Positions 32,026 through 41,743 of a stretch of 64,000 nt of DNA are shown here, one piece after another (the stretch's first letter is position 1; each line of letters begins with the position of its first letter). The position numbers were made by a program, and so were the translations under genes. This DNA comes from Promethearchaeia archaeon (GTDB lineage Archaea > Asgardarchaeota > Lokiarchaeia > Sigyniarchaeales > SOKP01). A model generated the notes under the pieces. That model saw nothing but the letters and a program-made list of their open reading frames with translations. It had not been told where the DNA came from and searched no databases. The stretch is from assembly GCA_029856145.1 (NCBI GenBank), contig JAHQWK010000001.1, positions 64,001 to 128,000 on the forward strand. Reading direction: 5' to 3'.

Positions 32026-32496
32026 TTACAGCATACCTATAGAATCAGACCTAAACAATTCCTTTACTTCTTTACTAAGATCTGCCTGATCGGCTTGTAA
32101 ATATCTATTTAGTATCAAAGATATTTTTGGAGCATATTTCTTCATAGTGGCTCTAATAAATCCTATCTGAGCATTTTTATCAGCTACAATACATAAAACG
32201 CCTTTACCGACTTTCATCGAAAAAATCATACCTTCAAGATATTCTGTAATTTGAAGGTCTATAGTCCCATAACCTAGAATATGGCCTTGTTCCTCTCCTG
32301 CCACAAAGACTGCGCCCCCAATAGCACCAATCTTTTCTACAGAAATTCCATTCTGATCAGAAAATTTAAATTTAGCTTGACTTAGAATTGTTATCCCTGT
32401 ATCATCAGTGATGAGAGCAAACTTTAATCCTGGCGTACTATTTATGATTAAAGTTAAAATCTTCTTTAATCTAAGCTCATCCTCGGAATAACTCAA
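32026..32496 (-). CDS. Roadblock/LC7 domain protein
   Basis: TPGLKFALITDDTGITI..EKIGAI..LCIVADKNAQIGFIR pattern. Confidence 0.85.
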   Translation of the reverse strand: MSYSEDELRLKKILTLIINSTPGLKFALITDDTGITILSQAKFKFSDQNGISVEKIGAIGGAVFVAGEEQGHILGYGTIDLQITEYLEGMIFSMKVGKGVLCIVADKNAQIGFIRATMKKYAPKISLILNRYLQADQADLSKEVKELFRSDSIGML

Positions 32497-32704
32497 ATAT
32501 TTATCAGCCTATTAATTAATATCTCTTTTTATATCAGTTTCTTTAAGGTTCAAAAATATTTATTTAAACCAAACTTTATATTTTTACCTTATACTCTCTT
32601 TAGTTAATGAAGATATTATAAATATAAAAATTTAAGTAAACCATTTGTTTTTCTACGGTACGCAATAAAAAATAATTATAAACTCTGTTCTGTAAACTTT
32701 TTTC

Positions 32705-33040
32705 TTAGAAAAGCTCCTGTGATTTAATTAAACCTTTTAGAGGTTTTAATCGACTCTTATATTCTTTTGATTTTTCTAATAATACCAATAATTTGTAATT
32801 TTTAGATTTGTCTAAATTTTTTTTGATTTGAATAAGATGAGAATCTTCTATAAAACCCCCTTTTTTGACAATCGCAGATAAGGCTAATGTATTTTCGAGT
32901 ACCCATAATTTCTTTGATATTTTAGACGCTATCGGGAAACCATGACGATCAGTAATAATTCCCGCAACAAAGCTCGGGAAAGTTTTCTCTATCCTGTATA
33001 AAAAATAATTAACCTCACTTTCGTTTATTAGCTTATCCAT
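32705..33040 (-). CDS. Roadblock-like (profilin/longin/roadblock fold) protein
   Basis: FVAGIITDRHGFPIAS pattern; lies in tandem with the roadblock gene. Confidence 0.6.
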   Translation of the reverse strand: MDKLINESEVNYFLYRIEKTFPSFVAGIITDRHGFPIASKISKKLWVLENTLALSAIVKKGGFIEDSHLIQIKKNLDKSKNYKLLVLLEKSKEYKSRLKPLKGLIKSQELF

Positions 33041-37823: not shown

Positions 37824-37978
37824 AGTTTATATTTAGAGGTATTATTTTCATGTATAAATTTTTACTCTTAAATTATGAAATCTCTCAAAGTTATTAAGAA
37901 TTTAGTCATTTAAAGAAAAATTCATACTTAATAACTAAAGTGACTTGTAAAGATTGTAGTTGTTATAATACACTTGAA

Positions 37979-39283
37979 CTAAAAAATTGAGAAATTAACA
38001 TATGGCTTTAACTCATCTAAAACAAAATTTGTATATGTATCTTCTATTTCCTCTGAAATATATAGATTTTTTATAAAAGTTGCATAATCTTCAATTTCCT
38101 TTACTCTTACGATTGCAAATAGTCCATATTGTTCGCCTATTCGAAATAAATCTGTAATATTTTTATTTCTATCCAATCTAAGGGCAAGTTCATTATATTT
38201 TGAAGGATCCTTTGGTTTAATACGAACAAGATATTTTCCTTTAAAACCTATTTCTTTTGGATGAAAGTTTACTGTATAATTTAAGATAATACCTCGTTGT
38301 TCGAGTTTTTTAATTCTGTTATGAATAGTTGATTGGGATATTTCCATTTTAAGTTGTTCTTTAAATAAGTTTCTTATTTCATAAGTGGATATTGGTTTAA
38401 GTCCTTGACCATCACGTAATATATTTAGAATAATATAATCAATATTGTCTAATTCAAAATCGGGCTCAATATCTTTCTTATCTAATTTTATTCCCGTTTT
38501 CCTTATATTTTTAACAATTTTATCAATTACTAAATCCACTTTTGTTGCACTCTTTAAACCAGTCACAATTATTTTACCACTTGAGAAAATTAAAATTTTT
38601 ACTTGTAAATTTTCAATTTTCATAACTAGACCCGGAAATTTATCCGGACTATATTCAATATCTGCGCTTTTTGCAGCAATTTGATTTAAGTCAATTTTTT
38701 CTGGAATTTCTATAACTACATTCTCACTTTCATAAACCTTCTTTTCTTTTAATACATCAGTTAATTGAGCCACAAGTTCTTCTTCAATAGACATTTTTGA
38801 CTTTCTAAGGCTAATTCCATTTGTTTTAAACACTTTAATAGTTTCAATAATTTGATATTTTTTAAAATATGATTTTGCCATTATTTTATCAATATTATTT
38901 AATATCTGATAATATTCTTCAGGGGATTTAAAGATAAATAAGGCGAATAAAGAAAAATCTCCAATAATACCATCTAACATTCTTAGTTGGGGGATTTCTA
39001 ATAATTCATTTACTAACTCAGGCTCTTTTGGATTGGTTTTAATTTCAAGCATTACATATTTCAAGGTATTGGGACGAATATTTGGATCAATATTTATTGT
39101 AAAATTTGTAATTATTTTTTGATCTCTCAAATCATCAAGTTTGTTTTGATATGTTTGCCTAGAGAGCCCAATCACACGTGAATTTTTTGATATAATAAAT
39201 TTAGTTTTTCCACTTAAGTTTTTTATAAAGTTTTGGGCTTCTACCCTATCTATCACATTATTCAAATTATGACAATTTTGCAA
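37979..39283 (-). CDS. Tandem Lrp/AsnC regulator with an internal single TBP repeat
   Basis: HTH-RAM module, then TBP half (YSPDKFPGLVMK..LIFSSGKIIVTG), then a second HTH-RAM module (ISQSTIHNRIKKLEQRGII). Confidence 0.85.
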   Translation of the reverse strand: MQNCHNLNNVIDRVEAQNFIKNLSGKTKFIISKNSRVIGLSRQTYQNKLDDLRDQKIITNFTINIDPNIRPNTLKYVMLEIKTNPKEPELVNELLEIPQLRMLDGIIGDFSLFALFIFKSPEEYYQILNNIDKIMAKSYFKKYQIIETIKVFKTNGISLRKSKMSIEEELVAQLTDVLKEKKVYESENVVIEIPEKIDLNQIAAKSADIEYSPDKFPGLVMKIENLQVKILIFSSGKIIVTGLKSATKVDLVIDKIVKNIRKTGIKLDKKDIEPDFELDNIDYIILNILRDGQGLKPISTYEIRNLFKEQLKMEISQSTIHNRIKKLEQRGIILNYTVNFHPKEIGFKGKYLVRIKPKDPSKYNELALRLDRNKNITDLFRIGEQYGLFAIVRVKEIEDYATFIKNLYISEEIEDTYTNFVLDELKPYVNFSIF

Positions 39284-39397
39284 TTTTTTTGATTATTATT
39301 AATTAAATGTTAAATTTTTCTTATAAATCATTGCATTCGACCAAAAAAACATTTAAAAATTAATTAAAACTAGAGATCTTAAAAATTATAAATTGAA

Positions 39398-40678
39398 TTG
39401 AAGAAAAAAATGACAAATTATAAAATTGCTGATGAGAGCTTAGCAAATCAAGGGAAAGAGGCATTATATATTGCAGAAAATAAAATGCCTGTTACAGCAA
39501 GAATTATTCGGGAACGGTTTTCTAAAGAAAAACCTTTAGAAGGTATAACTATCGCCGGTTGTTTACATATAACAAAAGAAACGGGTAATCTTGCTCGAAC
39601 TTTAAAAGCGGGGGGAGCAGAAGTATATCTCTGTGGGAGTAATCCATTATCGACTCAAGATGATGCAGCGGCAGCATTAGTACAAGAAGGGATTAATGTT
39701 TTTGCTTGGCATGGTAATACCGACGAAGAATTCTATTGGTGTATTAGGCAGTGCTTAGATGCTAAACCAAATATCCTTATTGATGATGGCGCTGATATGA
39801 TTGTAACTGCACATCAGGAATATGAAGACCTAATAAAATCAGGTACTATTATCGCATGTCAAGAGGAAACTACAACAGGTGTTAAAAGATTTAAAGCAAT
39901 GGAGAAAAGAGGACTTTTGAAAGTACCTCTATTCCCTGTTAATGATGCCCGATGTAAAAATCAATTTGATAATGAATTAGGCACGGGTCAGGGTATAGTA
40001 TCTGCAATATATGGGATGCATGTTCTTTTTGCAGGCAAAAATGTAGTCATCGCGGGATATGGTCATTGCAGTTCAGGCATGGCACTCAGAGCACGAGGAT
40101 TAGGCGCGAACGTAACTGTAACAGAAGTTGACTCCATAAAAGCATTGCAAGCAATATTTGCTGGATATACTGTCAAGCCTATTGAAGATACTTTACCTAA
40201 TGCGGATATTATTTTAACAGCTACTGGTTGCAAGCATGTCATTGCTCCTAAAAAAGAGTTATTTGATAGTTTAAAAAATGGAGTTATCCTTGGAAATCTT
40301 GGACACTTTGATATAGAGATTCCTACTAAAGAACTATATGAATATGCAAAAGAAATAAAACCTATTCGACAAAATGTAGAAGAATTAATTTTTCCTAATG
40401 GTAAGAAAGTTTATCTATTAGCTAAAGGAAGATTAGCAAATTTAGTCTTATCAGAGGGGCACCCAAGTGAAGTAATGGATATGTCGTTTGCTTTACAATC
40501 ATTAATGTCAGAATATATAGTTAAAAATAAGGACTCCCTAAACCCAGGTATGGTTGATGTACCTATGGATATCGATGATAAGGTTGGTTTTCTCAAATTA
40601 CAATCAATGGGCGTTAAAATAGATAAATTATCTGAAGAACAATATAATTATATCCATGGATTTCTCGAAGGCACTTAA
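39398..40678 (+). CDS. ahcY: Adenosylhomocysteinase
   Basis: GCLH, SNPLSTQD, DDGAD, EETTTG, FDN, GHFD, GHPSEVMDMSF motifs. Confidence 0.95.
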   Translation: MKKKMTNYKIADESLANQGKEALYIAENKMPVTARIIRERFSKEKPLEGITIAGCLHITKETGNLARTLKAGGAEVYLCGSNPLSTQDDAAAALVQEGINVFAWHGNTDEEFYWCIRQCLDAKPNILIDDGADMIVTAHQEYEDLIKSGTIIACQEETTTGVKRFKAMEKRGLLKVPLFPVNDARCKNQFDNELGTGQGIVSAIYGMHVLFAGKNVVIAGYGHCSSGMALRARGLGANVTVTEVDSIKALQAIFAGYTVKPIEDTLPNADIILTATGCKHVIAPKKELFDSLKNGVILGNLGHFDIEIPTKELYEYAKEIKPIRQNVEELIFPNGKKVYLLAKGRLANLVLSEGHPSEVMDMSFALQSLMSEYIVKNKDSLNPGMVDVPMDIDDKVGFLKLQSMGVKIDKLSEEQYNYIHGFLEGT

Positions 40679-40717: not shown

Positions 40718-41743
40718 CTAAGTTTTAGGATTTAAAATTTCATCTGCATAGACATTTTCTCCATAAACTTCGAAAGCAAGAGTTCTCAAACCATCTAATC
40801 CGATAGGTTCTTCTTTAAGTTTACTTGATTGCCAAATTTTTAACTTTTTAAATTCTTTTTTGATTTCTGTAGCATAATTAAGTTGAAGTGATCTAATTTT
40901 ATGGCAAAAATCACATTTCTTTGGTTCAGGTATAATCATATTTATATGAACTCCCTCTAATTTAATATATCGTTTTGTTAAATCTCTAGCTCTTTTAATT
41001 TCTTCAAAGCTTGGTTTTTCAGCTATAGTTACCAATCTAAGTGAACCAATATCGTGAATTAGATCTGAAATTCGTTCTCCGCGCTTTTCTAACTCAACAA
41101 TCATATTAAAAATTTCCCTTCCTAACTCTCGTCTTTCTTCATAATTATCAAATGGTTTGATTAAATTTCTCCACACTTTTGAAACGTTTCGAATCGCACC
41201 CTTAATAGAATTATAAAAATTTAATGAATATTTTAGTACTACTTTTACTTGGTCTTCGGGAATCTCAAAAAGAGTAATCATATTTGCCGTGGGGGGGAAA
41301 TCTGCAATTATAATATCATATTGAGTATCTTGAGTATTAATGTCTTCTGCATCTAAAATTTTTTGAAAAAACATGGCATTTTTTAACGCAAGCGGAATTG
41401 AATCAGCTGTAAATGTTGTGTCTATAAACTTCTCGATTTGAGGAATCCTTCCTACAAGAGGCATTTGCTTTGTAAGGGTTTTCATTTTCTCTATCAAATC
41501 TTTAGTGTATTCCTTAGCATAAATATTAGCATCAGGTTCAATACCCCATAAATTTTTCGTTAGGGGGGTTACTTTGTTTCCAATCTCCAATTTGAATAAG
41601 TCACTAAGGTTATGAGCCATATCAAAAGAAATCAGAAGAAAATTTTTATTAGGAAGTAAGTCTGAGAGTAAAATTGCTGTTGCAGCACTAATTGAACTCT
41701 TTCCTACACCACCTTTCCCACCAAGAACGATAATTTTTTCCAT
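40718..41743 (-). CDS. ArsA/Get3 family ATPase (divergent)
   Basis: GKGGVGKSS, SFDMAHNLSDLF, CxxC (CDFC), EPIGLDGL. Confidence 0.85.
   Translation of the reverse strand: MEKIIVLGGKGGVGKSSISAATAILLSDLLPNKNFLLISFDMAHNLSDLFKLEIGNKVTPLTKNLWGIEPDANIYAKEYTKDLIEKMKTLTKQMPLVGRIPQIEKFIDTTFTADSIPLALKNAMFFQKILDAEDINTQDTQYDIIIADFPPTANMITLFEIPEDQVKVVLKYSLNFYNSIKGAIRNVSKVWRNLIKPFDNYEERRELGREIFNMIVELEKRGERISDLIHDIGSLRLVTIAEKPSFEEIKRARDLTKRYIKLEGVHINMIIPEPKKCDFCHKIRSLQLNYATEIKKEFKKLKIWQSSKLKEEPIGLDGLRTLAFEVYGENVYADEILNPKT

Follow-up and report, generated by a model that had tools for sequence, protein, structure and literature searches.

A tandem Lrp/AsnC regulator encoded in the 64,000-nucleotide stretch of DNA analysed here (the window) carries a single lobe of the TATA-binding protein (TBP) between its two modules, and this lobe was copied from lobe 1 of the TBP that the family itself encodes. 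Judged by the defining features that were tested, the protein is no TBP but belongs to the Lrp/AsnC family and carries a new accessory domain. There is about an even chance, in our judgement, that the lobe is a dispensable, tethered minor-groove grip with which a regulator of the divergent ahcY gene would hold A/T-rich DNA beside its operator, probably acting by occlusion. TBP lobes also occur in RNase H3 and DNA glycosylases, where, according to a 2013 survey of TBP-domain architectures (PMC3597702), they are too old to be traced to a donor. For the present fusion, records exist of the donor gene and the junctions, of the ancestor before it gained the insert, of descendants from which the lobe was deleted again, and of dozens of variants. 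It represents a rare and recent natural experiment in co-opting a piece of the basal transcription machinery, and it gives a direct way to test the abilities of one TBP lobe on double-stranded DNA. Should the lobe turn out to be no more than an accessory grip, the protein is a neat lineage-specific domain fusion, while a lobe acting on TBP or TFB would mean a new regulatory principle in Asgard archaea. A term search of the same survey (PMC3597702) gave no mention of Lrp, and a literature search covering few subscription papers found no published account of a TBP-lobe/Lrp fusion.

The gene lies in an uninterrupted open frame at 37979-39283 of the minus strand, and the 434-residue translation of this frame is the basis of the residue numbering used here. 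An earlier reading of the sequence only had taken the full span as the gene; the open frame stands, but the start is probably a TTG at 39265, giving 428 residues, because relatives carry ATG at the same codon and a 428-residue record (P0003) matches with 100% identity. M7 is nearly invariant among homologues. Two features that define Lrp/AsnC proteins, an N-terminal winged helix-turn-helix (HTH) and a C-terminal RAM domain, are present. The AsnC_trans_reg profile (PF01037) matches two stretches (44 bits), HTH_24 matches module 2 at its cut-off, and NCBIfam Lrp/LysM models match in both modules. Module 1 is Lrp-like and the more divergent unit, with 29% identity to module 2. Solved Lrp proteins match the C-terminal module and solved TBPs match the middle of the chain. 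The claim of one TBP repeat between two HTH-RAM modules is borne out. From what is known of the family, the two modules probably form an intramolecular pseudo-dimer, the unit that Lrp proteins need for DNA binding. The full-length AlphaFold model (pTM 0.44) does not give the position of the lobe relative to the HTHs. Lrp/AsnC proteins bind amino-acid effectors, and the ligand-loop residues of this regulator are invariant yet non-canonical. The siroheme decarboxylases AhbA/B and NirDL, whose catalytic motif is H-x-Y-x-R, were considered and rejected as relatives, as scores of about 20 bits fall far below the cut-offs of 125-140 and the motif is absent; the likeness is in fold only.

The best sequence and structure matches for both flanks of the lobe are the archaeal Lrp/AsnC (feast/famine) regulators. 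FL11/PH1519 (PDB 2cyy, 2e1c), P. furiosus LrpA (1i1g), and Ptr2 are built of the same winged HTH and RAM modules, and the archaeal regulators, like the one in the window, sit at a promoter shared with a metabolic gene. Unlike them, the window regulator has two modules per chain, altered ligand loops, and a linker that holds a TBP lobe; Ptr2 itself carries no TBP lobe and has to recruit TBP as a separate protein (PMC2995911).

Table 1. Features of the regulator gene and of its shared promoter region (window positions)
Feature	Position	Strand	Basis or remark
Tandem Lrp/AsnC regulator with TBP-lobe insert (probable start)	37979..39265	-	frame, Pfam, P0003
Module 1 winged HTH	39068..39265	-	R42, Q43, T44, and Q46 of recognition helix invariant
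Module 1 RAM (AsnC-type ligand-binding) domain	38810..39067	-	profile match, model
5' G-I-x-L motif, left insert edge	38807..38818	-	also in insert-free ancestral linker
Acidic amphipathic helix ahead of lobe	38726..38806	-	residues 7-20 of insert model
Single TBP lobe (copy of lobe 1 of host TBP)	38480..38725	-	S1 four residues short; stirrup without E-x-E
F216, first intercalating-Phe position	38636..38638	-	75/75 homologues
F233, second intercalating-Phe position	38585..38587	-	82% (weighted)
3' G-I-K-L motif	38483..38494	-	common to TBP lobe 1 end and Lrp linker
Module 2 winged HTH	38249..38452	-	sequence and profile matches
Module 2 RAM domain	37982..38248	-	R381-I-G-E384 and E414-D-T416 invariant
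TATA-like box, putative promoter of regulator	39320..39327	-	sequence, conserved consensus
A/T-rich element downstream of regulator's TATA-like box; candidate operator	39298..39313	-	conservation
BRE-like purine run and TATA-like box, divergent ahcY promoter	39341..39359	+	sequence; TATA box 39352-39359
A/T-rich element abutting ahcY TATA box; candidate operator	39360..39369	+	conservation
ahcY (S-adenosylhomocysteine hydrolase)	39410..40678	+	ATG at 39410

The lobe is recognised by a single match to the Pfam TBP profile (PF00352; aa 187-262, E 1.7e-20; score 73 bits, cut-off 22.9). The sequence-only reading had placed a TBP repeat at about 38490-38725; a lobe does lie there, but the insert is larger (aa 160-268, 38480-38806) and includes the helix ahead of the lobe, which is absent from shorter insert forms. 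When folded alone, the insert is predicted with a pLDDT of 80 and a pTM of 0.71, and in a comparison of the model with 48,161 chains the top matches are TBPs (1mp9: Z 8.9, 89 residues aligned, rmsd 3.5), as expected of an insert that takes the TBP fold. The helix-grip fold and the F-P-G and G-K motifs of a single TBP-type lobe are present, and these are common to archaeal TBP (PDB 1mp9, 2z8u), the host C4 TBP, and the insert. In contrast to these proteins, the insert has one lobe, a short S1, no TFB stirrup, and an approximately 18-fold higher dN/dS. TBP proper has two lobes per chain, whereas only one PF00352 match was found here, and the lobe scores 72 bits against NCBIfam TBP models with cut-offs of 181-347.

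Conservation across the DNA-binding face is uneven. Both intercalating Phe residues were said to be kept, which is true of the copy in the window but not of the whole family (F216 100%, F233 82%). This copy retains 9 of the 10 scored DNA-contact positions, while the full ten are found in only 5 of 75 homologues. S1 is the strand at the centre of the TBP saddle. In most insert forms it is shortened or replaced, often reading I-E-I-E-I with Glu at alternating positions, and the donor S1 is four residues longer. Elsewhere in the saddle centre, N188 is kept in 39% of homologues and T241 in 35%. The centre of the saddle, where TBP proper has an intact S1 with the Asn/Val base readout and the S5 Thr, has thus decayed. 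Archaeal TBP binds TFB through lobe 2, by an acidic E-x-E stirrup (C.L3.2 and C.L3.4; PMC7221094). At the corresponding positions 212/214, E-E was found in none of the 75 homologues, which have N-E, N-K, N-Q, or D-E instead; Glu is never present at 212, and the stirrup of the window's regulator reads S-P-D. A complex prediction with two insert copies (aa 163-275) scored 0.00, which gives no answer either way.

The insert is 59% identical to lobe 1 and 36% identical to lobe 2 of the host C4 TBP (G000 C4), which makes lobe 1 of the family's own TBP the donor. In one allele (P0027) the motif D-Y-x-T-x-L-D-Y-K-I-E-N, a remnant of the TBP N-terminal tail, is retained ahead of the lobe. Since some alleles keep such a remnant, the captured piece is the 5' half of tbp, and by the same token the acidic helix is probably what is left of the tail. 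Lobe 1 ends in a G-I-x-L motif that the ancestral linker also has, with similar codons, and the 3' G-I-K-L is a likely crossover microhomology. Ongoing gene conversion from the resident tbp was considered and discarded; at silent sites and in overall identity, the TBP of the same genome is no closer to the insert than other TBPs are. The genome retains two intact, two-lobed TBPs. The main tbp (L002:634-2058) encodes a long acidic N-terminal tail whose length varies, and the gene directly upstream of it reads, on its sequence alone, like a Rab-like small GTPase. The second TBP (G000 C13, L004:1231-1830) is divergent, two-lobed, and 199 residues long. Several TBP-like matches occur in many genomes of the family. 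There is also a minor insert form (P0070, P0066, P0077; L203 = G083:C99) that runs on into the TBP inter-lobe linker. It has a full-length S1 (P0070, P0066), has lost F233, and shows features of a different TBP allele. Neither this nor the long form is derivable from the other by deletion alone, and the minor form may reflect either a second capture or a different trimming of a longer ancestor.

The long form of the insert is present in 37 of the 126 family genomes with the gene, most of them confirmed by sequence or profile and one identified by frame length alone. These genomes belong to 5 of the 13 genera of this Promethearchaeota family, 24 to the window's genus and 13 to four others, which rules out a restriction of the insert to one genus. 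The remaining genomes, about 70% of the family, encode a tandem Lrp whose modules are joined by 9-15 residues. Relatives named in public records are Promethearchaeota (Lokiarchaeia), for example Loki_b32. Presence and absence among orthologues, a check that the sequence-only reading had proposed, extended to genomes of other families, and the insert was not found in those searched. The queries used did not match the regulator in two genomes of the window's genus (G005 and G035, 90 and 95% complete). A chimeric assembly, the artefact that the same reading had warned of, is excluded as the cause of the fusion, which recurs in dozens of assemblies made independently. When other long proteins carrying this TBP were sought, only this family and mostly eukaryotic gene models came up, which is weak evidence.

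A tree built from the Lrp modules only places the insert-bearing alleles, with short-linker alleles nested among them, in one cross-genus clade (support 96). The best tree has one gain and five losses (six state changes). As a clade made up only of insert-bearing alleles is not rejected (p-AU 0.097), five independent losses are not a firm count. Re-deleted alleles show junctions of at least three types (9, 10, and 15 residues). Genus monophyly is rejected for the regulator (p 0.0004 and 0.012), while the arcS and RaSEA trees largely track genera; the allele therefore moved sideways at the same locus, and the lobe was also deleted again. The ahcY tree is likewise scrambled across genera irrespective of insert state, so selection for the lobe is not needed to explain the spread. 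The ahcY-lrp pair (window 39398-40678 and related loci) has the look of a hotspot where alleles are replaced in place. The TTG start (39263-39265) is common to the window genome and two insert-free genomes, G023 and G036 (L092, L093), which supports descent of the latter two from an insert-bearing allele.

Pairwise counting gives a dN/dS of 0.45 for the lobe, 0.09 for module 1, 0.13 for module 2, and 0.025 for TBP, and the insert evolves 2.4-3.6 times faster than the modules. With a dN/dS below 1, the lobe is relaxed yet still under selection. TBP lobe 1 is almost invariant within the genus, while the 75 insert homologues are 32-64% identical to the donor. Thirteen positions, which we take to be DNA-facing from the contacts of TBP with TATA DNA, were compared with the rest of the lobe. 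Their mean rate is 1.63, against 1.67 for buried positions and 2.55 for the other surface (DNA-facing versus other surface, p 0.0013), although the test is confounded as DNA-facing positions lie mostly on β-strands, which drift slowly for structural reasons. Basic residues are retained in 96% of homologues at position 215, 93% at 237, 81% at 222, and 77% at 244; at ten donor-basic positions off the DNA-facing side, retention is 11-85%. Some subclades lack F233 or K237, and insert forms without the acidic helix still keep F216 and K/R215. The outer DNA-facing patch of the lobe (F216, K/R215, and K/R237) has been kept. An "outer patch" dN/dS of 0.08 is not relied on, as that patch was picked after the data had been seen. 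Because the DNA-facing surface evolves more slowly than the other surface, DNA contact and occlusion of the TATA box, one of two functions suggested by the sequence-only reading, stay plausible.

The TATA-like boxes of the regulator and of ahcY stand back to back in the intergenic region, each with a conserved A/T element beside it. Lrp/AsnC proteins bind imperfect inverted repeats of 13-17 bp with an A/T centre near the promoter, and no clear palindrome was seen in these elements. The promoter consensus is essentially the same with the insert and in alleles that lost the lobe, so the promoter does not depend on it. Degenerate TATA boxes were looked for in the promoter consensus of insert-bearing genomes and were not seen. 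The neighbours named by the sequence-only reading (ahcY divergent, then arcS, RaSEA, gar1, and tfb) are placed as claimed. Only the divergent ahcY is a constant link, found in 38 of 40 and 20 of 20 loci (both exceptions stop at a contig edge). Among these loci are those of six genomes from other families, in which arcS, RaSEA, gar1, and tfb are not among the neighbours. It is thus probably ahcY that the regulator targets. The tfb neighbourhood is identical in insert-free genomes and therefore uninformative about the lobe. A tie to tfb, or a single operon with arcS, was discarded on the same ground, with intervening genes in several genomes and the arrangement absent from other families.

The preferred reading combines these elements as follows. 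A tandem Lrp/AsnC regulator would control the divergent ahcY and its own gene. In a single event within the family, the 5' half of tbp would have recombined into the inter-module linker, probably via the 3' G-I-x-L microhomology. The HTH pair would settle on the A/T-rich elements beside the back-to-back TATA boxes, and the retained Phe and basic patch of the lobe would grip the neighbouring A/T-rich minor groove, adding affinity or bending and helping to hold TBP-TFB off the promoter. The ligand may be drawn from the SAH/homocysteine/methionine cycle. The lobe would be an optional add-on, as the regulator is also found without it and has shed it again. The proposed mode of working is that of RNase H3, in which one tethered domain of TBP type adds nucleic-acid binding across the minor groove (PMC4132731). 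This N-domain of RNase H3 is ancient, divergent, specific for RNA/DNA hybrids, and fused to a nuclease, while the lobe in the window was copied recently from a real TBP and sits within a transcription regulator. Single lobes are also found in halobacterial TbpA, which is non-essential and close to the TBP of the same species, and in other monopartite TBP-domain proteins, although these stand alone and are not fused (PMC3597702). Several points count against a minor-groove grip. In isolation the RNase H3 N-domain failed to bind dsDNA (PMC4132731), the hydrophobic face of the lobe could bind a protein rather than DNA, the promoter consensus is unchanged on lobe loss, and F233 or K237 is missing from some subclades.

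Alternatively, the lobe may be useless and selected only to stay folded and in frame, having spread since the ahcY-lrp locus recombines freely. The lobe's absence from about 70% of family genomes, its repeated deletion with differing junctions, its faster evolution than the modules, and the scrambling of the ahcY tree whatever the insert state are all in line with this. We nevertheless regard a mere passenger as unlikely, as the exposed Phe is invariant in 75 homologues despite their identity to the donor of just 32-64%, basic residues on the DNA-facing side are kept preferentially, and the insert persists in five genera.

TBP self-associates by its concave face, and the lobe may likewise use that face for protein, either capping real TBP face to face as a tethered inhibitor, decoying the TBP-binding surface of the RAM domain, or packing on the acidic helix. 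The hydrophobic concave residues are conserved, Lrp activators touch TBP by RAM surface residues (PMC2995911), and some TBP-fold domains serve protein binding (PMC3597702). Protein binding is nonetheless quite unlikely, since preferential retention of Lys/Arg suits phosphate contacts better and F216 and K/R215 are kept even in forms without the acidic helix. A gene-specific role in pre-initiation complex assembly, with the lobe pairing with a second lobe or capping host TBP at the ahcY/lrp promoters under the control of a methionine-cycle ligand, is decidedly unlikely; if true, archaeal relatives of eukaryotes would have turned a bacterial-type regulator into a TBP-related factor that selects among promoters. 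Very improbable is the rebuilt saddle of the sequence-only reading, in which lobes of oligomerised regulators pair on the TATA box and recruit TFB as a gene-specific initiation factor. Lrp dimers do form higher oligomers that could bring lobes together (PMC2995911), the fold, both Phe residues, and 9 of 10 scored contacts are intact here, and the minor form (P0070, P0066) retains a full-length S1. Against this proposal stand the origin from lobe 1 and the lack of the TFB-binding E-x-E in 75 of 75 homologues (PMC7221094), the loss of four residues from S1 or its replacement in most forms, with Glu often alternating along it, the rarity of all ten contacts (5 of 75), and the absence of F233 from the full-S1 forms. 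The dN/dS of 0.45 against 0.025 for TBP, the intact TBP genes still present, and promoters that stay the same after lobe loss argue in the same direction.

Several features of the wider locus were also noted. A TATA-like box (37851-37858, minus) lies 35 bases upstream of arcS, a hint that arcS is transcribed from a promoter of its own rather than from the regulator's. Two small genes that follow tfb (32026-33040, minus) are conserved in order across the genus, and the 156-residue product of one reads like a roadblock/LC7-type protein, judged by reading alone. On the other side, a gene for an ArsA/GET3-type ATPase (40718-41743, minus) converges on ahcY in most family loci.
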